Shown here: positions 823 through 63,797 of the stretch, one piece after another
How positions within the stretch are numbered: the stretch's first letter is position 1
How the letters are laid out: every line of letters begins with the position of its first letter
Source of the DNA: Octopus vulgaris
Lineage: Eukaryota
Length of the DNA: 64,000 bases
Direction: 5' to 3'
NCBI GenBank assembly: GCA_951406725.2
Contig: OX597832.1
Location: forward strand, 70,680,001 to 70,744,000
Program-made: the position numbers and the translations under genes
Notes under the pieces: generated by a model
Databases searched by the model: none
Told to the model about the DNA's origin: nothing
Seen by the model: the letters and a program-made list of their open reading frames with translations, nothing else

Positions 823-1199
823 TACTCTTTTACTCTTTTACTTGTTTCAGTCATTTGACTGCGGCCATGCTTGAGCACCGCCTTTAGTCGAGCAAATCGA
901 CCCCGGGACTTATTCTTTGTAAGCCGAGTACTTATTCTATCGGTCTCTTTTGCCGAACCGCTAAGTGATGTGGACGTAAACACACCAGCATCGGTTGTCA
1001 AGCAATGCTAGGGGGACAAACACAGACACACAAACACATACACACACATACATATATACGACAGGCTTTTTTCAGTTTCCGTCTACCAAATCCACTCACA
1101 AGGCATTGGTCGGCCCGGGGCTATAGCAGAAGACACTTGCCCAAGATGCCACGCAGTTGGACTGAACCCGGAACCATGTGGTTGGTTAGCAAGCTACTT
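823..1199 (-). mobile_element. tRNA-derived SINE, body and 3' part of the split host copy 1
   Basis: Minus-strand B-box GGTTCAGTCC at 1159-1168 and a (TAAAAGAG)-type tail at about 823-845. The same family occurs uninterrupted from 36629. Confidence 0.85.
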
Positions 1200-3195
1200 T
1201 ATTTCATATGATTTGCCACTAGGGCAGTACAAAGAGTAGCTGCGGGATGGACAAAAACATTAATGAATGATGGTGATGGACGAAGATGGTGATGGGAGAA
1301 GACGAAAGCGCCCGCCGACTTTCGCTTCTCTAAGACATTGTTCTTTTTTTTCAAAGGTTTTACAAAAATTTCAAATTTTACAAATTTTACCAGAGGCAAT
1401 AAACCTCTTTTTCAATATAATACAATGCTCAGTAAGTCTATGTTACCCGGCCGACCAGCGCTCTTGCCTCAACGAGGCAATCATCGCTGGTCAGTTCGTG
1501 GTCTAGAGGTATAATTTGAAATGAGTCCATCGGGAAGGAACCCGTGATCCCGCCCAGATTACCCCTCCCTATGACCTCCGCAGCCAGCTGCGAAGGCCAC
1601 TCGGGGTCCTCCGTGCAGGACCGAAGTCCCTCCCAATGGCCCCGCTTTCTCATTTTACGTATTTCGCCCTCTACTATTCGTCCTTTAAAAAAGAGGACCA
1701 CAAATTGTTCCACAAATTGTTCCTCAGGCGGCTCACCCGCCTGAGAAGACTTGGGAGACGCTGCCTACGTGTTACAATCCGGCAGCGTCCCGTTTCTCTT
1801 TTTTCTTTTCTTCTTTTTACCTTGGGCCACGGGAGGTTGAGGTTCCGGAGTTGCACACACCGGGTTCTCTTCTTCTCCTGCAGCTTCCGGGTCTTTTGGT
1901 AGGTCGCCATTGCTCCCCACTTTTCTCTTTCTCGTTGAGGAAGTCGTCGCTTCCCTGCTCTGTTTCTCTCCCTCCATTGGGGGGCAGGGAGAGGCTCCGA
2001 TATCAACTGCTCCAGGAACCTACTTTGGTCCCTGGGGCAGTTTTTCTTAATATGGCCGGTCTCCAGGCACAGGTGACACTTGGGGAAGGGCGTCCCTCAA
2101 GCATCACCGGATAACTGTACCCGGCCATCATCAAAAAGTCCGGCAAAACCAGACTTTTGGCTGATTGGGTCCATAGGGTCAAAATAGCTTTTGAACCCTC
2201 CCAATCAGCCGCAGGCTGTACTTTCACATTTAGGAGCTGGGCGCTGCTACCACCCAGAACCCGGCGGATAGAGTCCTCTATCCACTCGGGTTCAACGCCG
2301 GGTGGTAAGCCGCAGATCCAAGCTCTCAACAATTTTTGTCCCTTATAATTAGGGAGGAACAGTATTTCCTTGCCCTCAATGGGCTTGCTTGCAAAGTCGC
2401 AAGCTGCTTTAGGGGAGTCAAACATCAACCAAACCGTTGCGTATTTGACTCCCCGTGAGACGTATTTAACGGCTGGCATATAGTCTGCCAGCTCGTTAAC
2501 AATAGTGGCCTTTGGAAAGACAGCTATGGTGTTGAGCGACTTTGAATAAGTCCTCAACACCACGGTCTTGTCCTCTAGCTCCTTCAGGTATCTTTTGGGA
2601 GGTGTTAACTCCCATATGGTAAATTCCTTTGCCATAACAAAAGTTTAAAACAGTTCAAAGTGACAAAATAAAATAGACAAAAAAAGGAGAATAAAAACAG
2701 AACAGAAGGGAAGAAACAAAATTCGAAACGGCAGTTCAAAAAAGTTTTTAAAAATAAAAATAGCAGAAGAGAGTTCAAAATCCAGGCAAAGGAATTAATT
2801 TTTTTTTTCTTTTTTCCCGGCCAAAAAGGTATTCCAGGCCACTGGTAATCCACTTGTGAAAATAATCCTTGGTACTCCGTTGGTAAATCCGAAGACAAAG
2901 GCAATTACACACGTTGGTTTTTGAGGTGGGGCTACGCCTCCTCAAAAAACACAATTCTCACTACAAAGTGAGTCTTTATACTTGACTACAGGCAGGAAAA
3001 ATGTCCGGAGCAGAGTGAAGTCTATTACCTGCTAAAAAATATTAAATGCTAGAAAACATTAAATGCAAGGCAATAAACCTCACTAAGCCCCCAAAAATAC
3101 AAAACGCCTACCTGTAGTCGAGTCAAAAGTTCAACAATTCACGTTGAAACACGTGACAACTGGAGCAGCAAAAAACCACGTCTGAACACGTCAGA
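1200..3195 (-). mobile_element. Non-autonomous ORF1-only Tx1-like retroelement, copy A
   Basis: About 2.0 kb and collinear with 7337-9320. Bounded by ggttagcaagctactt (1184-1199) and ggttagcgagctactt (3196-3211). No EN or RT coding sequence. Confidence 0.85.
1438..2635 (-). pseudogene. ORF1 (gag-like, CCHC zinc knuckle) of copy A, disrupted
   Basis: ORFs 2003..2635, 1765..1977 and 1438..1713 align consecutively to the 396-aa ORF at 7631..8821. There is a frameshift near 2085, a TAG at 1765-1767 and a 12-bp tandem duplication near 1698-1722. Confidence 0.88.
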
Positions 3196-3439
3196 GGTTA
3201 GCGAGCTACTTTATTTCATATAATTTGCCATTTAGGCATTTACAAAGAGGGGACAAACAAGGACAGACAAATATAAAGGGTGAAGTAGCTTAACACAGTT
3301 AAAATTTTCGAATGAAATTACGGGTAAGATTATAAACAATGAGTTTTACGAAGACAATGTTTAAAAATATTATTAATGATCATGTCGAAGGACGGACACC
3401 CAGCCATCCGGGTAGAACCTTTACTTTCTGATCTGGTCA

Positions 3440-4963
3440 CACTTACCTGGTGCCAAACATACCCAACTTGCATGCCACAAACATATCTCGTGACAGACAC
3501 CTCTTCTCCAGCCTGATTTTGCTACTGAGGTGGTAACTAAAAAAGTTAATCAACCGCTGGCCGGAGACAAAGGTGCCTGTCACTATAACTTTCGTACGCG
3601 TCTTCCATACTGTTTCTTTCAGTATGGCTACTACTCAGAAAAAACAAGCCTTTCTTTCCCTGTTAAGGAAAGGAGGCGGCACAATCTCGATGATAGACTC
3701 AGCTGATAGATGTACTCTTCCCATCACTGACAATAGTTGTTCAGCAAAAGCTATCAGTCCCGATAACTCCGGACACTCCACGAATGCGTGCAAGACGGTC
3801 TCCCTATCCTGCTCACATCGCGGGCATGTCGGCGAGACGGCACTACCGTGCCTTGACAGCTTGTCGCGAACAGGTAAAGCCGCACGGAAACACTGCCAGG
3901 CCAGGGATTTCTGGTAATTATCCAGATACCCCGGCCCGAACGTCCTCCGGAACAGGTTGACCAACTGATTTTCATCGTAGCCCAAGGTCTCCCCCAAGGC
4001 GTCTTCGGACTTAACCTCCACTAACCCGCTATAGAAATCCGTGGTGGAACTCCTGTTGCCGGCGTTGCCCACCCGAGAGAGTAGCTGGAGCGCCTAACGG
4101 CACTCCAAATGCCATTCACTCAGTTTAGGTCTCCGCTTGATCCATGCACCGATGTCCGTTAGGGATGTTAACTGGGGAAGGTAGAACCGGACGTGCGGTG
4201 ACCACACCTGCTCTCCATCCAGGTAAAGCCAGAGGTGCCTCAACCTTAACGCGAGTTTTCGCATCCTCAGCCAAGGCATCCCTAGCCCACCCTTTAGCGG
4301 TTTCTGGCAGCAGACAGAGCGCTTTACAAGTGGCTTTCCTCCTTTCCATAAAAATCGGAAAAGGATTCTCTCCAACTTGTTCAGCCACAAATCGGGGCAA
4401 GGCACCACGGTCAGACGGTAGGTGATTACTGATGCTATAAACATCTGCACCACCTCCGCCTTCCCTAGCAGGGATAACGCCCGCCCAGACCAGGTCTGGG
4501 CTAGAGCGGTCACCTTGTTGGCCACCTCACTCCAATTTTTCTCAATCTGGAGGTCTGGCTCGAACCAGACTCCGAGCAGCTTAACAGGACCTTCCGTCCA
4601 ACGCCCTACGATGTTATTGGACGGCATCGGCTTGCCCCTCCAGGTGCCGAGTTGCAAACCGACCGACTTGTCCTTGTTAACCTTTGCTCCTGCCACCGCC
4701 TCGTAGCTTTTGATGGCCTCTTCCACCACTGGAAGCTGGCCTTCGTCTGCCACGATGATGGAGGTGTCATCCGCATACGCCGTAGCTCCTCTTCCACACC
4801 ATAGATCATGCGGCGCGCCCCCTAGTGCCTCCAACTTCCGCAGCAAAGGCTCAAGAGCCAATACGTATAGGAGCGAGGACAGGGGACACCCTTGACGAAC
4901 TGAACGCTCGATCGTGAACGGCTTCGAAAAGAAACCGTTCACCTTGACTAGAACTGTGGACAA
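3440..4963 (-). pseudogene. ORF2 RT C-terminal half plus zinc-binding domain
   Basis: VKVNG...SVRQGCPLS...AYADD...KLLGV...GGLGMP...CPRCEQDRETVLHAFVEC, with in-frame stops at 4094-4096 and 3635-3637. The end coordinate is approximate. Confidence 0.9.
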
Positions 4964-5595
4964 CTAAAACTAGACCTATCTCTAGTTCTTATCACTATCC
5001 TGTCTAGATAAGACTTGAACCTTCCGTCGCCACTCATCCAGGTCCACTCTGGGACGTTCGGATGGTCAAGTCTGTAACGATCTGCCAGCTGAAACCGCTT
5101 AAGCAGATCCACGAGACGTGAGTTCACTTTCCTATAGATCGAGCCAACGCTATCGATGTGTACGTCAACGATAGCATTAAAGTCCCCTAATATCACTAAA
5201 GTCTTCGACGTCACGAGAAAGCCCTCTAGGCGCCGATAAAAATCAGTTTGGAAACAAGGTGCATAGAGTCCGATCAACCTGAAGGACTTACTGCTGTATG
5301 TCACATCAAGGACGACCAGCCCACCTTCTGGGTCTACATAGACTGTACTTGTCTGCAGAGCCAAGTCTTTACGGATCAGTACCACTACACCCCCTCGCCC
5401 TCCGGTCTGGCCAGGAGACATGATTTTCTCGTAGCCATTCAGGAGAGGCGAGAAGGTTTGTAGGCTGTCCAGCTTGGTCTCTGTAGCAACCATCACATGT
5501 ATATCATGTGATCTGATGTCGTCAAGGAAACAAGCCTGCTTCCACTTCGAACTCAGACCACGCACATTTAAACAACCAAGGTTAAGAGAAGCCAT
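4948..5595 (-). pseudogene. ORF2 apurinic-like endonuclease domain, truncated
   Basis: LNVRGL, ETK, GGVVVL, LYAP, LGDFN, LADRYR and SYLDRI motifs are present; the final SDH motif is lost at the deletion. Confidence 0.92.
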
Positions 5596-5612
5596 TACAA
5601 AAAGTAAAAGTT

Positions 5613-6945
5613 CTACTTACATTTCGTTGGAGAGGTTGGGGCCGACCTCACCACACATTGGTGGGCCCCTTCTTTCTCCTCCTTCTTCAGATAGTCCGGC
5701 AAGTTCGCGATATGCCGGATGGCGTTTGGTTGTCTGTCTTTTAATTGTTTGAACGTTGTTTCCGCGATCCACGCACATCTCTCGTTTCGATCTTTGTATT
5801 TGTTGTACAGTCTTGCTGACTGATGCGGAACCACAATATCGTTTATGTATTTGTTTTGTGTGTCGAATTCAATTAATATGAGTTCATTTTTTTGTCTTCT
5901 TTTTCTGGGCCAGTTGAGCGGGATTTTTTTTTTTCGTGTCTGTGGTGTGTCTTTGTTTTTATTATTTTTTGTAGGGGATGTGGACGGGGATGATGCACGA
6001 ATTCTTTTACGAACTGTTGTAAATCCCGCCTCTGATACCTCCATGGTATCGTCTGGGGTAGCAATAGTTTGTTCAGTAGGCGCCGCAGTTTTTAAGGGGT
6101 GGGAGGTTTTAATAATGTAGGGGTTTGTGAGTGCGAGGGCTGGGTTTTTTCTTCAGTTTGTTTTGGGGTTGGCACCGTAACAGCGGGAGTGGGATTTTTT
6201 GTTTTTGTAGGGGTAGGTGAGTTTGCAAGGGTAGGGATTTTTTTATTATCTGAGGGGCCTGGTGTCTGCGGTTTCTTTTGCTTGTCTGGACAGTCTACAC
6301 GAATATGGCCCTTTTTGCCGCAGGCGTAACAGGTGGGTTTTCGGCCTTCGACTTGTACCCTGAGGGCCACGTTCTCGCCCACGAGCACCCTCTCAGGAAG
6401 GAGCTGCAGGTCCTCCGGTGTTCCTTGAATTATTATATTAATGTCTCGCCCAAGCCAATATAGAGGGGCAGAGCATGTTACTTGTAGTATTTTAATTTTG
6501 TCCGTCCTTTTATATAACAGGGCGGCCACTACCTCTACCGGATCTACTTCCGGCGGGGCTTCTGCAATCCTGACCCGGGACGTCCTGCGTCCCCTATAGC
6601 TTGGGAAAAGTACACAATGTCCTTCCAAATCGGGGACAGGCATTTCTCGATGGTGTTTTTTTCAAAGTGTTTGAACCTTCTGCTTTGTGGACAGAAGGTT
6701 TTAAACACTACGGTCCGCTTCTCGGTCTCCACGATACTGGCGGAGGGTGATATTTTAACATCACCACCCTCCTCTTTCATTCTTTTAAATAGCTCGACGA
6801 GCTGATTGACATTGATGTCAATGTTCTCGGTAGCCACTGCGGCTACCGCAGAAAATTTTTTACTACAGTTAATATTGCTCTCCTCAAGAGCACTATTTTC
6901 GTGAATAATCTCAATAGACATTATTCTGTTGAAATTAGACAACAC
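5613..6945 (-). pseudogene. ORF1 of copy B, frameshifted
   Basis: Three overlapping frames (6544..6945, 6092..6643, 5613..6044) with a CYACGKKGHIRVDC knuckle and a Pro/Thr linker. Homologous by eye to ORF1 of copy C (EKRTVVFKTF vs EDKTVVLRTY; EGRKPTC vs EGRPPKC). Confidence 0.85.
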
Positions 6946-7336
6946 AAAAATTACGAATATTGGTTTCCCACAAAACTGGGAAACCTATAGAAAGTTTTTC
7001 TTCCAAAGCAGTTCAATAAGTGGTAAAAAGCAGTTCAAAAAATTTCATTTCCCACCCCCATTCGGGGGAGGGGCACGTAAATAGTCTGGCAAGACTATAT
7101 ATAGTCACGTAGATAAAAAAGCCACAATGGCTAACAGTTCAACAGTAACAAATTATCCAATTATTCCCCGGTAAAACCGGAGAACAAGACAGTTCAACAA
7201 CGTTCAAAAACAAATTTTCAGTAGTAAAATTCAACAATTAACAACACAGCAAAACTCTTACCGGGAAGAAAACGCGTCCAAACCGTAGTAAGGTAAGCAA
7301 AGTCACTCTTCAGTCAGTGAGGTAAGCGAGCTACTT

Positions 7337-9320
7337 TATTTCAACAATTTTGCCACTAGGGCAGCACACAGAGTAGCTACGGGCTGGACAAAGACATTAA
7401 TGGATGATGGTGGTGGTGGATGAAGATGGTGATGGGAGAAGTCAAAAAGCGCCCGCCGACTCTTGCTTCTCTAAAACAATGTTCTTTTTTTTTCCAATAA
7501 TTTTACAAAATTTCCAAAATTTTACAAAAATTCAAAAATTTCAAAACAAATTCCAAATTTTACAATTTACAATTTCAAAAGTTTTTCCAGAGGCAATAAA
7601 CCTCTATCGCAATATAACCCAAATACAGGTTCACGTTACCTGACCGATGAACGCTCTTGCTTTAATGACGCAATCGTTCTTCGTCAGGCCCCCGCATATA
7701 GGTATAACTTGCAAGAGATCCTCCGGGAAATAATTCTCGATCCTGCACATATCATTTTCGAGTAGGACCTCCGCAGCCAGCTGCGAAGGCCACTCGGGAT
7801 ACTCCATGCAGGACCGAAGTCCCTCCCATTGGTTTCTCTTCCTCATCTTACCTATTTCATTCTCTAGTGTACCTCCTTTGTGGAAGAGGACCACATAATA
7901 TTTCTCCGGCCCCACAACCGCCGGAGGACACATGGGAGACGCCGTCTGCGTGTTACAATCCGCTGGCGGCGTCCCGTTTCTTTTCTTTCTTTTTTTCTTT
8001 TTACCCTGGGCCACGGGAGGTTGAGGTACCGGCGTTGCACACGCCGGGTCCACTCTTTCTCCCGTAGCTTCCGGGTCTTTTAGTGGGTCACCATTGTTTC
8101 CCACTTTTCGTTTTCTTGTTGAGGAAGCCACCGCTTCCTCGTTCTGTTTCTCTCCCTCCATTGGTGGGACAGGGAGAGGCTCTGATATTAACTTCTCCAG
8201 GATCCTACTCTGGTCCCTGGGGCAGTTCTTCTTAATGTGGCCGGTCTCCAAACACAGGTGACACTTGGGGGGACGTCCCTCAAGCATCACCGGATACTTG
8301 AACCCGGCCATCCTCAAAAAGTCCGGCAAAACCAGATTCTTGGTTGACTGGGTCCATAGAGTCAAAGTAGCCTTTGACCCCTCCCAATCAGCCGCAGGCT
8401 GCATTCTTACGTTCAGGATCTTGGCGCTACCACCACTCAGACCCCGGCGGATAGAATCTTCCACCCACTCGGGCTCAAAGCCGGGTGGCAGGCCGCAGAC
8501 CCATAATCTTATTAATTTTTCTCCCTTGTAGCTTGGGAGAAACAAAATCTCTTCGCCCTCAATGGGCTTGCTTGCGAAATTGCAAGCTGCTTTAGGGGAG
8601 TCAAAAAGCAACCAAATCGTTGCGTATTTGGCTCCCCGTTGAATGTATTTAACGGCTGGCATATAGTCTGCCAGCTCGTTCATAATAGTGGCTTTCGGAA
8701 AAACCATTATGGTGTTGAGTGACTTTGAATACGTCCTCAACACCACGGTTTTGTCCTCCAGCTCCTTCAGGTAACCCTTCGGAGGTGTTAACTCCCATAT
8801 GGTTAACTCCTTTTTTGCCATAACAAAAGTCCAATAAAAAACACAATGACAGAACAGAAAGACAGAGCAGAGAAAAGGACGAAGGAAGACAGTTCAAATA
8901 ATGGCAACACTGTTCTGCAACTGGTAATCCTCACGAAACAGGGTACTCCAGTTGCAGCACACTTGGTTCTCCGTGGTAAATCCAAGCACAATTGGTTCTC
9001 CGTGTTAAATCCAAGCGAACAAATTAATTTTTGAGGAGGGGCTATGCCTCTCAAAACACACAATTCTCACTAAAAGGTGAGACAATAAATATGCCAACAG
9101 GCAGAACAAATACCTCCGAAGCAAAGTGAAGCCTGTTACGGGCAGAAAAGTGTTAACACTAATTAACATTAATGCCAAAAAGTATTAACGGCAAGCAACA
9201 AACCTCACTATGCTTCCAAAATATCCAAAATGTCCTACCTGTTTGCCGTAAATGTTCAATATTTCACGTTAACACGTGACATCTGAAGCAGCTCCAAAAA
9301 ACACGTCTAACTCAGACGAA
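7337..9320 (-). mobile_element. Non-autonomous ORF1-only Tx1-like retroelement, copy C
   Basis: About 2.0 kb between target copies at 7321-7336 and 9321-9336. It has one intact ORF and the same 3' end as copies A and B. Confidence 0.88.
7631..8821 (-). CDS. ORF1p-like nucleic-acid-binding protein, 396 aa (putative RRM-like region, CCHC knuckle, basic KKKKRKKR tract)
   Basis: Uninterrupted ORF with CHLCLETGHIKKNC; homologous to ORF1 of the adjacent Tx1 element. Confidence 0.85.
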   Translation of the reverse strand: MAKKELTIWELTPPKGYLKELEDKTVVLRTYSKSLNTIMVFPKATIMNELADYMPAVKYIQRGAKYATIWLLFDSPKAACNFASKPIEGEEILFLPSYKGEKLIRLWVCGLPPGFEPEWVEDSIRRGLSGGSAKILNVRMQPAADWEGSKATLTLWTQSTKNLVLPDFLRMAGFKYPVMLEGRPPKCHLCLETGHIKKNCPRDQSRILEKLISEPLPVPPMEGEKQNEEAVASSTRKRKVGNNGDPLKDPEATGERVDPACATPVPQPPVAQGKKKKRKKRNGTPPADCNTQTASPMCPPAVVGPEKYYVVLFHKGGTLENEIGKMRKRNQWEGLRSCMEYPEWPSQLAAEVLLENDMCRIENYFPEDLLQVIPICGGLTKNDCVIKARAFIGQVT

Positions 9321-9360
9321 GGTGAGAAAGCTACTTAGCACACAGCCACTCCTGCGCCTA
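9321..9360 (-). mobile_element. 5' head (A-box) of the split SINE copy 1
   Basis: Minus strand reads TAGGCGCAGGAGTGGCTGTGTGCTAAGTAG, matching the head of the uninterrupted copy at 36629 (TAGGTGCAGGTGTGGCTGTGTGGTAA). It continues the SINE broken at 1199. Confidence 0.85.
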
Positions 9361-36628: not shown

Positions 36629-37000
36629 TAGGTGCAGGTGTGGCTGTGTGGTAACAAACTTGGTTCCAAAACACATGGTCCTCAGTTCAGTCCCACTGTG
36701 TGGTAACTTGGCATGTGTCCTCTGCTATAGCCTCAGACCTACCAGAGCCTTGGCAGTGGATTTTGTAGACAGAAACTGAAAGAAATCAATTGTATATATA
36801 TATGTATGTATATATATAAGTCTATGTGTGTGTTTCTCCCTCATTACAGCTTCACAACTGGTGTTCGCTTATTTACATCCCCATAACTTACTGGTTTCAC
36901 ACGAAGAAACTGATAGAATAAGTACCAGGCTTATCAAAATAAAAAAAAGCACTAGGCAGTGTCTCATAAATTTGTTTGCCCACTCAGTTGTATCTATCAA
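36629..37000 (+). mobile_element. Uninterrupted, diverged copy of the Tx1-targeted tRNA-SINE
   Basis: TAGGTGCAGGTGTGGCTGTGTGGTAACAAACTTGGTTCCAAAACACATGGTCCTCAGTTCAGTCCC has A and B boxes contiguous, and the target segment is mutated. Confidence 0.8.
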
Positions 37001-37066: not shown

Positions 37067-37916
37067 GGACAGCTATATGCTAGAAGTAGATCACATGCGA
37101 TCAAAACTACCAAAAATACATGTTCTCCAGAGAAAATTCCACGAACACCAGAACATAGGCGGGCAAGACAGATGAAAATTATATAAAAATCAAGAATTAA
37201 TCGTATACCGATTTCGTCTATTACCGAATAAATTACTTACGTAATCCTTCGTCCGTTGATTCATCAATACGATCGTTCCAAAAACAATATAATTAGTAAA
37301 ACTAACCACCAGTTTTCTGCATAAAAACCAGACACGTGCTTAGTTCTACCGATTACATTGGGGTTAATTTCAAATGTCTGAGTTCTGGCGCGCTAAATTC
37401 CGGAAACAAATTCTGCAGCAAATAATGTACTGCAGTTAATGTTGCCTATTAGAGAATATAATTATTTTAACATTTAAATAATGAGGGAGGTAAATTGAAT
37501 ATCAATTTAAAACCAGTAGCCTAGCATATAAAAATCTGAAAACTCAGAGAAAATTCCAATACATGTGTATATTTAGGGCAAAAAAACCACCATCTGGACA
37601 GCCATATGCTAGAAGTAGATAATATACGATCAAAACTATAAAGAAAAAATGTTCTCCAGAGAAAATTCAACGAACACCAGAGCATAGGCGGGCAAGACAG
37701 ATGAAAATTATATAAAAATCAAGAATTAATCGTATACCGGTTTCGTCTATTACCGAATAAATTACTTACGTAATCCTTCGTCCGTAGATTCATCAGTACG
37801 ATCGTTCCAAAAACAATATGATTTGTAAAACTAACCACCAGTTTTCTGTATAAAAACCACTCACGTGCTTAGTTCTACCGATTACATTGGGATTACTTTC
37901 AAATGTCTGAGTTCTT
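37066..37916 (-). repeat. Direct repeat of ~320 bp (period ~530), Penelope-like pLTR pair
   Basis: 37066-37386 matches 37595-37916, and each copy holds a hammerhead motif. Confidence 0.85.
37729..37802 (-). ncRNA. Type I hammerhead ribozyme
   Basis: ATCGTA-CTGATGA-aTCTA...TAGAc-GAAAC-CG-GTA-TACGAT: 6-bp stem I and palindromic stem III ACCGGT. Confidence 0.72.
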
Positions 37917-49887: not shown

Positions 49888-50031
49888 ATACGACGGTCTT
49901 CTTTCAGTTTCCGTCTACCAAATCTACCCACAAGGCTTTGGTCGGTCCGAGGCTATAGTAGGAGAAACTTGCCAAAGGTGCCACGCAGTGGGACTGATCC
50001 CAGAACCATGTGGTTGGTAAGCAAGCTACTT
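49888..50031 (-). mobile_element. tRNA-SINE host copy 2, B-box side
   Basis: Collinear with 1056-1199. Confidence 0.85.
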
Positions 50032-52082
50032 TATTTCATAATATTCGTCATGTAGACAGTACAAAGATTGTGTAGCTTTGCGGGCCGGACAAACACATTA
50101 ATGAATGAAATTGAAATAAAATGAATAAATGAGAGACGAAACCCAACACTCGCTGATTGGATTTTTCTCGAAAACATATTTTCTTTTTTCTTTAAATCAT
50201 AATGAGGTTTCAAACCTCTTACAAGAAGGAGGCACTAAAACCTCTTACTTAACACGTTTGTTTTAATACACACAAATGATGTAATAAACCACTACAAATA
50301 ATACAATAAGATGAGGTTTCAAACCCTCTAACGAGGCCTTTTCGCTTCCTACTCATTGATATATCCATCGATATATTCCTCATTATTTTCAATGCCGCTT
50401 GAGTTCCTGTATCCTTCCATTTCACATGCTTCACTCATGTAGGACATGTAAGTCGTGTAAGGGCCACCCGGCCATATGCGACACTCTTTCCCAAATCCTT
50501 TAAGCCTTTCTCACAAGGGAAACCTTATGACCTCCACAGCTATCTGCGGAGGCCATTCAGGACCTCGTGTGAATGGCATATCTACTATCTCTTTATGTTC
50601 TTCTACTATTTTTCCACCTCCATACCCTTGTAGAAAAAGATAATTAATTCATCATCTTTAAAAGTGGGGGTCGTTTCTTCCACCGCGGTGACACAACTTC
50701 GGGACATGCAGACGGTACATCATCTCCCCGCTGCGATGACCCGTTCTTCTTTCTTTTTTTCTCTTTTCTTCCTGACTTCGGGAGAGTGGAGCTCTTCCGC
50801 TTTGTCCGGAGTCTCTCCCCCACCTCCCGAAGTCTTAGGGTCCTTCGGCAGGCAACTATTGTTACCCGCCTACTTCCTTTTTTCACATCCACCTCTCCCT
50901 TTGACCGGGTAGGGGAGGTGACAGTTCCGGGACCTTACCATGGTCCTGAGAGCAGTTCTTTTTAATGTGGCCTGGCTGAAGGCACGAGTGGCACTTGGGG
51001 GGACGTCCCTCAAGTATCGCCGAATACCTGCAGCCAGCCATTTAAAAAAATCTGGAAAAACCAGATCTGTTGCGGCCGTCGGGGTCTACAGGGTCAAAAT
51101 CGCTTTTGACCCTTCCCAATCGAACGCTGGCAATACCCTTACATTTAAGAGCCTTGACCCGCTATCCCCCAGTCCCCGTCGGATGGTATCTTCAATCCAA
51201 CCCGCGTCGGTGTCTGGGGGTAACCTACATACCCAGGCTCTTATTAATTTTCTCCCGCACTACGACGAGACGAACAGAATTTTGTTGCACGCTAATGGCT
51301 GACTCGCAAATGTTTGAGCCTTTTCCCGGTCGTCAAACAGCAACCATACGGTTTCATGTTTGACACCTCGGGATATGTATTTCACTGAGGACAAATAGTC
51401 TTTCGGTTCATTTTCTATAACTGGTTTTGGGAAGACGGTGATGGAATCAAGAACTTTAGAATAAGTTCTAACCACCATCGTCCTCTTCTCCATATCTGTT
51501 AACCACTGCTTAGATGGGTTAATTTCCCACTCTAAGACAGAGTTCTTCTTTTTAAGTTCCTTCTCTGCCATGTCCCAAAAAACAGTTAAAAAGTAGTTCA
51601 AAAATCAGTCCGCAAAAAAATTAAAACCGAATAAAAATAGAATTAAAACAAAATAAAAGAGAAGGAAAGGAAACTGAAGTTCAAATAATGAAAAGAATGA
51701 ACCAAAATTTAGAAAGAAAGAAAAAATAGAAGGAGAAAATAAAAGAAAAACCTCACAAATAGAACAGACAGGGAATCCTTTGTATAATACTCCAACAGGT
51801 AATCCAGTAGTGTCGGTTATTCTTGAAGTACTCCAGGTAAATTTCGACTTTTTCTAGTGAGATACGCCCACTAGAATTTACAAATTATTTGGCGAAAAAA
51901 AGCCACACCAAAAATTCTCAATTCTCCGTTATGGTGATGAGAACACAATATTTTTGCTCGCTATAGCGAGCCATAATTGACAATTTTTCTTTTTGTTCTT
52001 TTTTCTATTCACGGAGCCAAAACTCACGTCTTCTCACTGTAACAGTCCAGACCAACTAGTGTTGCATTCTGGGTAACCGGAA
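50032..52082 (-). mobile_element. Non-autonomous ORF1-only Tx1-like retroelement, copy D (diverged subfamily)
   Basis: Flanked by a perfect 15-bp duplication gtaagcaagctactt (50017-50031 and 52083-52097). It carries an ORF1 homologue and the shared 3' end. Confidence 0.88.
50440..51571 (-). pseudogene. ORF1 of copy D, disrupted
   Basis: MAEKEL...MVVRTYSKVLDSITVFPK...VKYISRGVK, a stop at 51260, PKCHSCLQPGHIKKNC at about 50953-51000 and PEWPPQIAVEV at about 50530-50562. The end is approximate. Confidence 0.85.
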
Positions 52083-52122
52083 GTAAGCAAGCTACTTAAT
52101 ACACTGCCACTTCTGCACCTAT
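52083..52122 (-). mobile_element. 5' head (A-box) of split SINE copy 2
   Basis: Minus strand reads ATAGGTGCAGAAGTGGCAGTGTATTAAGTAGCTTGCTTAC. Confidence 0.8.
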
Positions 52123-58579: not shown

Positions 58580-61500
58580 TGGCTCGGCTTCGCGAACGAA
58601 GATCAGGAAGTCTGTCCACGTAGCGTGCATGCGCGTTCATGACTGACAAGTCCAATATAGGAAAGGCAGGTCAGTGAGCAGTGTCCACAGACGAAGGTAA
58701 CATCCGGTGTGGTGTCAGAGGCGGCTCGTACCTTCCTCCTGCGTCTCTTGTCTTTAAGCGCGTCTCTTCTTTGTTCCTCAAACTTGCTGACTGCGTTGAA
58801 GATCGTGTGGCACCAGACATCACAGTCTGCAGCCAGGCCTGACCAGCATTGGTGGTTAATATGACATGCAGTTAGAGACTGCTTGAGGCAGTCTTTGTAG
58901 CGCTTCCTCGGTGGCCGGTGGAGAGTTCACGGTTCTCCATTCTGGAGACATGCCCAGCCCATCGGAGGTGTGACTTCAGTAGCATGGCTTCAATGCTGGG
59001 GATCTTGGCCCACCCAAAGAATTCAATGTATGTTGAGGATGGTGCTGACACATCGTTGGTGGAAGCGCTCGAGGAGACGGATGTGACTGCAGTAAGTGAT
59101 CCAGGTCTCTGAGCCATAGAGAAGAGTGCTGAGAACCACGGCCCTGTAGACACTGATCATTGTTTTGTTCTTCAGGCTATTATTGTGCCAAACACGTTTG
59201 TACATTCTGCCAAAGGACCTATTTGCCTTAGAGAGTCTATTTTCAATTTCTTTGTCGATTCTTGCATCGAATGAGATGATGCAGCCCAGGTATGTAAACT
59301 GCTGAGTTGATTTCAGTTCGGTACCGCAGATAGTGATGTGGGGTGGGCGGTAATCCTCTTGGAGTGTAGGTTGGTGAAGTACCTCCGTCTTCTTGAGGCT
59401 GACCTCCAGGCCAAGGAGCCTCGAGGCGTCTGCAAAGCAGGACGTAATGCGCTGCAGAGCTCGCTCTGCGTGGGCGACAAGGATAGCGTCGTCTGCGAAG
59501 AGAAGGTCTCGAATCAGCCTCTCCTGGGTCTTGGTGTGGGCTTGGAGGCGCCGTAGATTGAAGAGGCTGCCATCCAGACGATACCTAGCATACACCCCAT
59601 CCTCATCCTCCATATCTTCAGTTGCATGCTTGATCATCATGCTGAAGAAGATGCTGAAGAGAGTCGGTGCCAGGACACAACCCTGCTTCATGTCGTTGGA
59701 GATGGGGAAGGGCTCCCACAGGTCACCATTGAGTCTGACCTAACCACGCTGATTCTCGTGCAGCAGGATCACCATCTGTAGAAACTTGGTGGGACAGCCA
59801 AGTCGTTCCAGGATGAGCCATAGTCCTGTCCTGCTCACTGTGTCAAATGCTTTTGTGAGGTCGAGAAAAGTAGCATAGAGTCCCCTGTTTTGTTCTCGGC
59901 ACTTCTCCTGGAGTTGGCGCAGGACGAACACCATATTCGTTGTGCCTTTGTTGGCTCTGAATCCACACTGGCTCCCGGGGAGGTTTTCTTCAGCAATGGT
60001 TGGTACTAGCCTGTTGAACAGGATCCTGGCAAGTTCTTTGCCGGCGATGGAGAGTAGGGTGATTCCCCGGTAGTTGGAGCAGTCAGACTTTTCGCCCTTG
60101 TTCTTGTACAGGGTTATGATGACGGCGTCACGAAGATCCCGTGGCAGCTTGCTCTGCTACCAGCAGCAGACAAGAAAATCATGGTGCTTGTCATGGAGCA
60201 TCGGACCTCCATTCTTCCCGATTTCTGGTGGGATGCCGTCAACTCCTGCTGCTTTGCGACTCTTGAATTGTCCCATGGCTTCAATCGTTTCTTTGAGGGT
60301 GGGTGGTTCGTTGAGCTCCTCTTTGAGTGGAAGGTGAGGAATGCGAAGGATGCCAGCGTCCTGTACGGTACGGTTAGCATTGAAGAGGCTTTGGAAGTGC
60401 TCGGACCAGCGAGCGAGAATGGAGGTGTTATCGATGAGAAGGTCCTGTCTATCTGAACTGCGCAGGGGACTCTGGACCAGGTGGGTGGGAGCATACACTG
60501 CTTTCAGAGCCTCATAGAAGCCTCTATAGTCTCCGAGGTCAGCGCACAGCTGGGTTCTCCACGCCAAGTGGTCCCGCCACACGTTCTGTATTTCTCTGAG
60601 TTTTCGCTGTAGAGTGCTGCATGTGCGTCGAAAGGTAGTTTTCTTTACAGGACAGGCTGGTTGTGCGAGGTGGGCCTGATGAGCTGCCCTCTTCCTTGCT
60701 AGTAATTCCTGGATCTCCTTGTCATTTTCATCGAACCAGTCCTTGTTTTTCTTCTTTGTGTTCCCGAGAACTTCCATAGATGTCTTAAGCATGGCTGATT
60801 TCAGGTTCTCCCACAAGGTGTCTGGGGTGGTGTCATCAGTGCAGGGGGATTCGTCTAGTCTTTGCTGCAGGTTTGCTTGGAACTTGATTTTCAGTTCCTC
60901 CCCGAACAAGCTGTCGACATCGAGTTTCTTTGCGGGGTTACCTTTCTTCTTGGGTTTGGGTTTGAACTGCAGTTTGAGCTTGCAGCAAACAAGGATATGG
61001 TCGGTGTGGCACTCGTGTGTAGAACGTCTTTCAGGTCCCGCTGGCGTACAAGCACATAGTCACGTAGATGCCAATGTTTGGACTGGGGATGCACCAAGTT
61101 GTTTTTAGACGGTCTTTCTGTTGGAAGATTGTGTTGGTAATAGCAAGTCGGTGCTCTGTGCAGAACTCGAGCAGGAGGTGCCCGTTGTCATTACAGCCAC
61201 CAATGACGTGTCTTCCAAAGACTCCTTTCCAAGCCTCCGAGTCTCTCCCAACTCTTGCGTTGAAGTTGCCAAGGATCAGGACCTTGTCGTTTGCAGGGGT
61301 GTTATTCAAGCGTCTGCACAGATCAAAATAGCAGCTGCCTTTGTCCACAGGATCTGCCAGTAGAGTTAGAGCATAAACACTGAAGTGCGTGAGATGTTGT
61401 TTGCTCTCCAGTGGTAGGCGCATGGATATGATGCGGTCGAGTGGCCCGTGGCTAACATTTCCAGTTTGAAGGTGATTTTGTAGGACTCACGTTTTTCAGA

Positions 61501-62506
61501 TGATGGTTTTCCGGACCAGAAGAGGGTGTAGCCAGCGTCACGTTCTTTGAGGCCGCTCTCGTCAGCGAAGCAGACCTCGCTGAGAGCTGCTATGTCAATG
61601 TTGAGACGAGAGAGTTCATGAGCTATGAGAGCCGAACGACGTTCCGGGCGGCTGCTGTCAGCCTTGTCAAGCATGGTCCTGATATGCCAGCAGGCAACGT
61701 GAACTTTTCTTCGGTTTTGTTTCCATGTTTGTTCGACCGCGCTGAAGATGCCCGTTGACCGCGGCTAGCCAACTGAGTATAGAGGAGACGAGCTTTGTTT
61801 AGGCGAACCTTTTCTACCGTCCCTCTCCATGTGGAGCAGGCAGTGCTCTCCCTGAATAGGGCTACCTGGTCGCTCAGGATGCTGCCGAGTTGTGTCGTCG
61901 CCTCCGGGTCGACAACCAGGCGACCAAAGTCCTGAGCCGCCTACATGTAGGGTCGAGACTACGGCTTCCAGTGACATCTTCCATCTGCCGCTTTCGCCCC
62001 TTTCCATCGCTGCAGGGCTTTTAGGATGGCTAGTCACAGAACGTGGACATGTCCTTTGGCCTGCGCTGAGGAGTTTTAAGGTGAAGTGCTGTGCGCGCAA
62101 ACTGGCCCCAGCCTTTAAGCACGAGGTCCATCTGCCATGACCTAGCGAGCTGGGACGATGACAGCGAGATCTTCGTGCCGTAGGTTTGAAGTTGGAGTTA
62201 TCCTCTCCTAGTAGGGTTGCCAACCATTGCTGACGAGCCCCTCCTGCCTATGCCATCCAAACCAGGGCGAAAGAGAGACACACACGCACAAAGCACTCCA
62301 CACACACGTTGTTGGATGGCCGTTGACTACGCTGTAGTTCTTCCGCCCTTTGACAGGTCTTATTTTTTGTCCTGCAGGGTGTCCAAAAAACACCCGCCTC
62401 ACCAAGCAAGCCTGGTGCGGTTGCCAGTTTAGTCGCCGACGACCCGATCATGTAACAGGTTGTACTGGACTACATGGTACCAGTAACAGCCAAGTGACCT
62501 GACCTG
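58579..62506 (-). mobile_element. RTE/BovB-clade LINE, near full length, multiply frameshifted, inserted in (TA)n
   Basis: EN (WHIRTM, IDIAALSE, ILGNFNARVG, NDNG) and RT (DLTKAFDTV, KQGCVLAPTLF, LLFADD, FTYLG, LLYGSETW, LRWAGHV), a long 5' UTR and (TA)n on both sides. Confidence 0.95.
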
Positions 62507-62854: not shown

Positions 62855-63797
62855 TTCAACAATTGAGGGTAAAATTAATTAATTAATCAATTTCACCAAG
62901 TATTCAGTATGCAAAGGGACCATTTAAGGCGAATTCAAATTATTACATTATATAAAAGGGCTTAGTAAAATAAATTACTTTGCCGCATACTGAACTCATT
63001 AGAAATAGCAGCTAAGAAAAACTTTTTTAAAACTATTTCCAATACTTAAAGAAAATCTCTCTCATATAGTGTTTGCTCAACTCAACTCACGAAAGTATGG
63101 GGGTAGAGACATTAAAAAATCAAATGCAAAGGTTATTTGAGAACGTACGTTTCAAGATTAGTCAAACTCGACACTTCTATCATCAGCTCAGAACTCCCTG
63201 GTTTGGATTTGAAAACACTGAAAGTGAGAGCATACCCTTTCGGCTTCCCATCGCTTCTGAAGATCTACTCGAAACTAACAGTGCCAGCAAATTCAAATAT
63301 GCAAGCGAAGAATTTCTGCTCTCCCCTTTCCACCAGCGTGGGTTAAAATCAGTAAACACCATGCTTTTTTTCGGTAAAATCCGAGGCATTAAATAGAGAG
63401 AGATGAATTATAATTTCAACAATTGAGGGTAAAATTAATTAATTAATCAATTTCACCAAGTATTCAGTATGCAAAGGGACCATTTAAGGCGAATTCAAAT
63501 TATTACATTATATAAAAGGGCTTAGTAAAATAAATTACTTTGCCGCATACTGAACTCATTAGAAATAGCAGCTAAGAAAAACTTTTTTAAAACTATTTCC
63601 AATACTTAAAGAAAATCTCTCTCATATAGTGTTTGCTCAACTCAACTCACGAAAGTATGGGGGTAGAGACATTAAAAAATCAAATGCAAAGGTTATTTGA
63701 GAACGTACGTTTCAAGATTAGTCAAACTCGATTTTGACTAATCTTGAAACGTACGTTCTCAAATAACCTTTGCATTTGATTTTTTAATGTCTCTACT
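62853..63797 (-). repeat. Direct repeat (period 560) followed by an inverted partial copy, Penelope-like pLTR arrangement
   Basis: 62853-63171 matches 63413-63731; 63733-63797 is the reverse complement of about 63663-63726. Confidence 0.88.
63138..63190 (-). ncRNA. Type I hammerhead ribozyme
   Basis: TGAG-CTGATGA-tAGA...TCTt-GAAAC-GTAC-GTT-CTCA, with palindromic stem III ACGTACGT. Confidence 0.7.

Follow-up and report, generated by a model that had tools for sequence, protein, structure and literature searches.

Putative site-preferring L1/Tx1-group retroelements stacked in an octopus tRNA-type SINE, with a DPE-like motif near their 5' ends

Results

Four elements interrupt a tRNA-type SINE at one base

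The window analyzed here (the whole stretch of DNA, 64,000 nucleotides) carries on its minus strand two copies of a tRNA-type SINE, each interrupted at one 16-nt site. Read along that strand, the first site comprises the SINE head, J1, element C, J2, element B, J3, element A, J4, and the SINE remainder, and the second comprises the SINE head, J5, element D, J6, and the SINE remainder, where J1 to J6 are the junction copies of the 16-mer. All four elements were inserted at the identical base, three of them stacked and one solo, and 16-nt copies were found at 6/6 junctions. The features are as follows.

9337..9360, minus: SINE head upstream of the stack, tRNA-like
9321..9336, minus: J1, the 16-mer 5' of C, off the majority at positions 10 and 13
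7337..9320, minus: element C, non-autonomous, one intact ORF1-like frame and no RT
7321..7336, minus: J2, C/B junction, off the majority at position 9
3212..7320, minus: element B, decayed, of autonomous type
3196..3211, minus: J3, B/A junction, off the majority at positions 9 and 13
1200..3195, minus: element A, non-autonomous paralog of C, ORF frameshifted
1184..1199, minus: J4, junction of A with the SINE remainder, off the majority at position 13
1053..1183, minus: SINE remainder of site 1, identical to that of site 2 at 112/128 bases
52082..52097, minus: J5, 5' of D in the second SINE copy
50032..52081, minus: element D, decayed ORF1-only relative
50016..50031, minus: J6, junction of D with the SINE remainder, equal to the majority 16-mer

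We take the SINE head to be A-box-like and the SINE remainder to be B-box-like. ARAGORN reported no tRNA gene at the target when run on the window, and Rfam returned no family at its gathering score among 150 listed of 242 window matches, nor in five loci of the relatives described below. One uninterrupted SINE copy was examined (36630-36800, plus strand), and its target region departs from the 16-mer at 6/16 positions. A search for the exact junction motif in a set of bacterial and archaeal genomes gave 0 matches. Elsewhere in the window, an unrelated decayed LINE with an RT (about 58600-62400, minus), presumably RTE-like by its motifs, is flanked by AT microsatellites and has no 16-mer. Near-identical local duplications at 62855-63796 and 37067-37915 (317 nt at 100% and 320 nt at 93%, plus an inverted piece) may represent recent duplication or an assembly artefact.

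Coding content places the elements in the L1/Tx1 group

Element B encodes an ORF1 with a CCHC knuckle and an ORF2 with APE, RT, and zf-RVT domains (domain matches PF03372, PF00078, PF13966, and PF00098); ORF2 has lost about 400 codons at about 4951, carries 2 stops, and has L1 ORF2 proteins as its nearest solved structures. Elements A, C, and D are 2-kb ORF1-only partners. The frame of C runs stop to stop from 8893 to 7631 (420 codons) and is homologous to ORF1 of the intact relatives (E = 2e-9). A and C form one family, with 81% identity over 1255 nt and 73% over 316 nt at the 5' end, and ORF1 of D is 43% identical to that of C at the amino acid level and has 3 stops. The best named protein matches were from Argonauta hians (59%) and Octopus sinensis (61%), which makes an octopod origin of the window very likely.

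An ORF2 with APE, RT, and a C-terminal zinc finger together with a knuckle in ORF1, as found in B, is the arrangement of the L1/Tx1 group, and the 16-nt copies at 6/6 junctions fall within the 10 to 20 nt given for target-site duplications of such elements in sections of PMC6895275. Excerpts of PMC4494074 describe as target specific an element with a common flanking target in >20% of its genomic copies; the same target flanks 4/4 elements of the window, at two sites only. We classify A to D as putative site-preferring retroelements of the L1/Tx1 group, a label kept at group level because no labelled Tx1 element was among the protein matches.

Junction mismatches and stacking are compatible with ordinary duplication

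Positions 1 to 8 are invariant in 6/6 junction copies of the window, and differences are confined to positions 9 to 16, a distal clustering that is borderline (p = 0.06). The stacked site requires a minimum of 4 changes in 64 nt. The probability under decay is 0.04 at 2% divergence, 0.13 at 3%, and 0.57 at 6.25%, where the SINE's own figure is 6%; the two SINE remainders differ at 16/128 bases. Because these counts fit neutral decay, copies derived from a donor element are not called for. In target-primed reverse transcription (TPRT), a staggered cut duplicates the site, and since the duplication leaves two usable targets, stacks can arise without a target-overlapping RNA. The initial annotation had invoked a transcription start within the target to explain both the mismatches and the stacking, and neither observation needs one.

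A DPE-like motif lies near the 5' ends, without a canonical Inr

That proposal rested on an Inr/DPE pair that would fix +1 at the A of an AGT within the 16-mer, with the DPE at +28, and all of its coordinates are correct on the minus strand. In A, AGT lies at 3210 and AGACGTG at 3183-3177; in C, the corresponding positions are 9335 and 9308; the spacing is +28 in both. In B, GGACGCG at 7279 is +29 from an AGT within an inner target copy (7307-7292). In D, AGACGTG at 52031 is indeed +27 from an AGT at 52057, but that AGT lies outside any target-like copy: scored as one, its region reaches 10, as do 1097/1828 tiles.

9301..9308, minus: DPE-like motif of C, matching RGWCGTKY at 8/8 and following J1 by 12 nt
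7292..7307, minus: degenerate target copy inside B, following J2 by 13 nt and matching the target exactly over its final 9 nt
7272..7279, minus: DPE-like motif of B, a 7/8 match that follows the inner copy by 12 nt
3176..3183, minus: DPE-like motif of A, 7/8, 12 nt after J3

The motif of D (52031, 7/8) lies 50 nt after J5, and A has a second, imperfect copy at 3193. Against RGWCGTKY, the extended DPE of Drosophila LINEs in the portions of PMC1636488 that define it, the match is thus 8/8 in C and 7/8 in A, B, and D. With 14 occurrences in 128,000 positions, RGWCGTG is rarer than expected by chance, and 3 of the 14 are at the 5' ends described here (P about 0.008 per 70 nt); its presence there is not due to chance. 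The loose form RGWYV, found in 72% of 70-nt stretches, is uninformative. In A, in C, and in B (counted from its inner copy), 12 nt separate the end of the target copy from the motif, and these three spacers, with only 4, 4, and 6 of 12 bases in common, cannot be aligned.

The spacing carries less weight than it first seems to. Because A and C are paralogs inserted at one base, their equal +28 is expected and counts as one observation; exact spacing is found in 2/4 window copies, both of that family, and B and D are each off by one. The proposed +1 has A rather than C at -1, with 3/6 mismatches to TCAGTY in A, 2/6 in C, and 4 to 6 in B and D, and neither TCA+1GTY nor the CA core of BBCABW is present at that position of the 16-mer. 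The Inr consensus and the finding that a one-base shift of spacing lowers DPE activity several-fold are both taken from parts of PMC5580651. The notion of an Inr/DPE pair that sets +1 in the 16-mer is consequently not supported, for want of an Inr and with exact spacing in two non-independent copies of four. DPE use in a cephalopod was the subject of none of the best 15 of 500 literature matches listed.

Several ACGT cores, the motif among them, lie in the first 110 nt, 4 in A and 3 in C (expected, 0.33); such a core could be a factor site of the bZIP/bHLH type. This excess favors a plainer account, pure target-site duplication, in which the RNA would start at or just after the first base of the element, AGACGTG would be a position-flexible factor site, and junction differences would stem from decay and sloppy 5' joining. 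The lack of an Inr, mismatch counts that are not in excess, and a +28 spacing that follows from two paralogs at one site agree with it.

Other motifs were observed in the 5' UTRs. TGAAC is repeated 4 times in A, 5 in B, 2 in C, and 2 in D (expected, 0.5 per 500 nt), and GGANTAC-type motifs number 4, 0, 4, and 2 in A, B, C, and D, respectively (expected, 0.1). Splice-donor-like sites occur early in the 5' UTR at 7261 (B), 3111 (A), 9238 (C), and 52027 (D), as well as in 12/13 5' types of the relatives; in groups F3, F5, and F6, the donor-like site lies within a long inverted repeat, with an acceptor-like site farther on. From such signals, a 5' UTR intron controlling ORF1 is possible.

Relatives in tandem arrays lack the motif and differ in junction behavior

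A scan of prokaryotic genome records yielded 39 loci, of which 35 (L001-L035) are in one record, CAXXMW01, labelled as a bacterial MAG; four distant loci (29 to 32%) were left out of the relative set. L001-L035 are head-to-tail arrays of intact two-ORF relatives, 46 to 48% identical to the RT segment of B, with microsatellite-rich flanks, and are probably carry-over from a eukaryotic host. They provided 63 junctions in 9 groups, in which AATAAA is present by construction, having been the search anchor. The arrays end like the window elements, and their junction sequences differ. Motifs were counted at 55 junctions with a full 5' end or host DNA after them, a filter that removed 8/63.

RGWCGTG or RGACGYG was found within 120 nt at 0/55 of these junctions, and an Inr with a DPE at +28 in 0/13 5' types, so the conservation of spacing expected by the initial annotation did not extend to the relatives. 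These counts weigh against a strict Inr-plus-DPE promoter, in which TFIID would read an Inr in the 16-mer, with the second A as +1, and a DPE at +28. In its favor are a rare motif (14 per 128,000) that matches the Drosophila LINE DPE, at 8/8 in C, exact spacing in A and C, and a spacer whose length is kept when its sequence is not. It is hard to square with the missing C at -1, with 2 to 3 mismatches to TCAGTY, and with +29 in B and +27 in D under a spacing requirement that is single-base in the cited parts of PMC5580651, and we regard it as improbable. RGWYV at +27 or +28 from a junction CA in F1 (22/25) was set aside as a loose motif in one family with homopolymer noise.

Several observations in the relatives accord with pure duplication. 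ACGT is present in 5/13 5' types at variable positions from 18 to 94, and in F4 an Inr-like match (0 to 1 mismatch) coincides with the beginning of the group's own 5' UTR, at junction position 21. Copies truncated at the 5' end lie between identical junctions of 19 to 20 nt, and four F1a copies start after the junction, two beside host DNA and two with extra bases before the 5' UTR. At L020:13454 and L020:7010, the extra bases that separate a complete junction from the 5' UTR are an inverted copy of the junction end in one and a repeated T-rich start in the other.

Other observations speak for an RNA that overlaps the junction. In F1, diversity is 0 at junction positions 1 to 7, 0.19 at positions 8 to 17, and 0.007 in the upstream 700 nt. 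A Mantel test over 22/30 F1 junctions linked the variants to the 5' type found downstream (rho = 0.53, p = 0.0005) and gave no link to the 3' UTR found upstream (rho = 0.05, p = 0.38). Variant junctions precede 5/5 type-b versus 4/19 type-a copies (Fisher p = 0.003), counts that amount to about 3 type-b events, as F1 copies are non-independent; their upstream and downstream haplotypes are themselves correlated (rho = 0.4). Applied to F2 (n = 5) and F4 (n = 7), the Mantel test gave no significant result, and F3 and F6 are without the variation that it needs. Tracking of the element type by the junction variant was thus seen in F1 and not in F2 or F4, and the linkage in F1 could also come from unequal crossing-over or recombination or from error-prone joining. 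In addition, one F5 copy restarts at junction position 3 behind 24 extra bases, a signature as in B. The first F4 copy adjoining host DNA retains the last 15 nt of the junction, which is equally an ordinary 15-nt duplication.

At the other end, 4/4 array 3' ends retain 14 to 20 junction bases, and F1 junction sequence precedes two unrelated host flanks; both suggest a read-through RNA that carries the junction. The arrays may contain chimeric assembly. Two 5'-truncated copies with the same breakpoint stand in tandem at an array end (L016:7178-13457), and their arrangement points to possible unequal crossing-over within arrays. Host flanks where two of the arrays begin were compared with the F1 junction, and a resemblance was rejected (p = 0.18 and 0.20).

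An inner target copy in B keeps the same spacer

The inner copy of B matches the target at 9/9 bases, and its score was reached by 14/1828 tiles, 5 of them true junctions. We conclude that the inner copy is real and that its coincidence with a 12-nt spacer survives scrutiny of the spacing argument. A tandem degenerate target copy at a 5' junction was found in B within the window and at L002:12304 among the relatives. The target is semi-palindromic, and a stretch resembling the inner copy is present in F6, so the copy could in part be a 5' UTR motif. Homology of the B 5' end to F6 was considered and dropped, as the alignment was not significant (p = 0.15). Pure duplication leaves the inner copy and its equal spacer as a coincidence, and it predicts neither the variant junctions that track the downstream type nor the F5 restart at position 3; overall, we view it as a close rival that is itself less likely than not.

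The 3' ends contain antisense matches to the target

Each of A to D terminates in a small hairpin, of 4 pairs and with one compensatory change, followed by GAAATA, with no poly(A). Together with the first two target bases, GAAATA forms AATAAA across the 3' junction (for example, at J3). The last 120 nt of all four elements contain an antisense match to target positions 1 to 9.

1235-1241, minus: 3' UTR antisense match of A, 7 nt, shuffle p = 0.022
3283-3291, minus: 3' UTR antisense match of B, 9 nt, shuffle p < 0.0005
7372-7378, minus: 3' UTR antisense match of C, 7 nt, shuffle p = 0.031
50072-50078, minus: 3' UTR antisense match of D, 7 nt, shuffle p = 0.0085

These matches were noticed post hoc, and A, C, and D share common ancestry. 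For each of the four, the cognate junction comes first or second among 10 groups, and with read-through, each 3' end is foldable into a long hairpin closed by the antisense match. Either target RNA made by read-through or the displaced strand of the target could be the pairing partner of the 3' UTR antisense. In the relatives, a folding test placed cognate above permuted combinations in 18/18 settings (p = 0.002 to 0.37, 5/18 below 0.05), and the covariation is suggestive only. A duplex test for covariation of junction and antisense gave p = 0.35 and 0.58 for the 5' UTR and 0.09 and 0.27 for the 3' UTR, and that candidate was rejected.

On the 5' side, the 5' UTR of A (3165-3172) and of C (9287-9296, both minus) can pair with the first 7 to 10 bases of the upstream 16-mer, pairings that are not significant against shuffles. 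The 5'-terminal hairpins, considered as snap-back products or conserved structures, are no more stable than shuffles (p = 0.06 to 0.73), and for the terminal hairpin of the relatives the aligner gave no common structure. By eye, a stretch of the form GAGGTTT..ATTGCCT was seen at about 3065-3080, 1385-1400, and 7590-7605 (minus), which places it in both UTRs of A and in the 3' UTR of C.

Discussion

The reading that we favor, tentatively and as somewhat short of probable, combines ordinary duplication with an internal Pol II promoter and, in some subfamilies, an RNA whose 5' end overlaps the upstream 16-mer and so allows the cDNA to anneal to the target. Our observations concern anatomy and sequence statistics, and from these we infer all steps of transcription. 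By the scheme of TPRT, the endonuclease would nick the bottom strand at the 16-mer's left edge and, 16 nt farther along, the top strand; each insertion would duplicate the site and leave two usable targets, from which stacks could form. Pol II would transcribe from an internal promoter that includes the ACGTG cluster, and the RNA would pass AATAAA at the 3' junction into the downstream 16-mer. For RNAs of the A/C/B type, the 5' end would lie within the upstream 16-mer at least part of the time, with no canonical Inr. By analogy with R2, annealing of the cDNA end to the target overhang would yield one seamless copy, as in A and C, and where annealing failed, an inner second copy behind extra bases might result, as in B.

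A and C have only 12 bases of their own before the promoter-like motif, and B has 12 nt after its inner copy; D, with 50 nt before its motif and no inner copy, runs counter to the overlap. The idea that transcripts start inside the target copy, which was the core of the initial annotation, is thus retained in part: the inner copy of B and the junction behavior of the relatives speak for it, and the four relative copies that start after the junction speak against it. A bolder extension, which we consider unlikely, is that the first 15 transcribed bases have been ceded to the target, that the target stands at both RNA ends, and that antisense pairing partly programs site choice and homing to the element's own junctions through RNA, in an APE retrotransposon. 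Pol II would then start in the upstream 16-mer and read into the downstream one, like the R region of an LTR, and the antisense motifs of the 3' UTR (4/4) and 5' UTR (A and C) would pair with the RNA ends or the displaced strand.

Transcription might instead read through from an upstream element or from the SINE, with the 5' end cut out near the 16-mer as by the R2 ribozyme. Head-to-tail arrays in the window and the relatives would suit such an origin, as would the potential of the 16-mer to pair with the 5' UTR in A and C. C and D, however, have no upstream element, which argues against a promoter requirement of the HeT-A type, and AATAAA closes each upstream element. T runs terminate Pol III, and those found 36 to 76 nt after the first base of the 16-mer argue against Pol III read-in from the SINE. 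The 5' folds are no more stable than shuffles, and the Rfam comparison (150 listed of 242 window matches; five relative loci) gave no gathering-score match to an HDV-like ribozyme at the 5' junction. Precedents are described in parts of PMC1636488 for HeT-A and of PMC3774820 for R2 co-transcripts, and we judge this origin very unlikely here.

Several components of these readings are already known: target sequence at the RNA 5' end in R2, terminal redundancy in HeT-A, DPE promoters in Drosophila LINEs, and transposon or small-RNA targets in Tx1 elements. The overlap idea is a variant of R2 and HeT-A logic. Neither an octopus family that targets a SINE nor initiation within a target that is duplicated came up in our searches of mostly open main-text literature.

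As with Tx1L, Keno, Kibi, Koshi, and Tx1-Mar in the passages of PMC4494074 devoted to them, A to D occupy one site in a multicopy sequence, include tandem insertions, and have an ORF2 of APE, RT, and zinc finger with L1 nearest among solved structures. They differ in their tRNA-type SINE target, which is absent from the targets named in those passages, and in their 2 kb ORF1-only partners. With the Drosophila LINEs jockey, I, F, G, and Doc, as treated in portions of PMC1636488 and PMC2377424, they share an RGWCGTKY-type motif near the 5' end and, with F, a second, nearer copy of it in A. In those portions, the Drosophila elements own a start about 28 nt before the motif, whereas A and C have only 12 bases of their own and no Inr, and the relatives lack the motif. 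HeT-A, in the relevant parts of PMC1636488, likewise forms head-to-tail arrays and has an RNA whose two ends carry one short sequence. HeT-A as portrayed there needs the 3' end of the upstream element; here, target DNA of the host would make up the redundant piece, and the 5' motif is shared by solo copies.

The closest comparison is with R2. Sections of Eickbush et al. 2013 (PMC3774820) describe R2 RNA with 9 to 36 nt of upstream 28S target, accompanied by uniform junctions and occasional tandem, substituted target duplications split by non-templated bases. As there, target sequence at the RNA 5' end would let the cDNA anneal, junction variants could propagate, and B has a tandem substituted target copy at its 5' junction. 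Unlike A to D, R2 as presented in those sections has a restriction-like endonuclease, rRNA co-transcription, and excision by an HDV-like ribozyme; A to D have an APE-type enzyme and a duplicated site, and initiation by Pol II would be the source of their overlap.

Should the plain reading alone be correct, the window reveals a SINE-targeting family of the L1/Tx1 group. In the excerpted text of PMC6895275, the joining of the 5' end of APE-type LINEs is still an open question. If the overlap is true, variant 16-mers would be a natural marker to distinguish donor from target strands at 5' junctions, for which the relatives, intact and 99% identical in their tandem arrays, offer ready material, and a start in the constant, duplicated target would reach R2-like clean junctions without a ribozyme.
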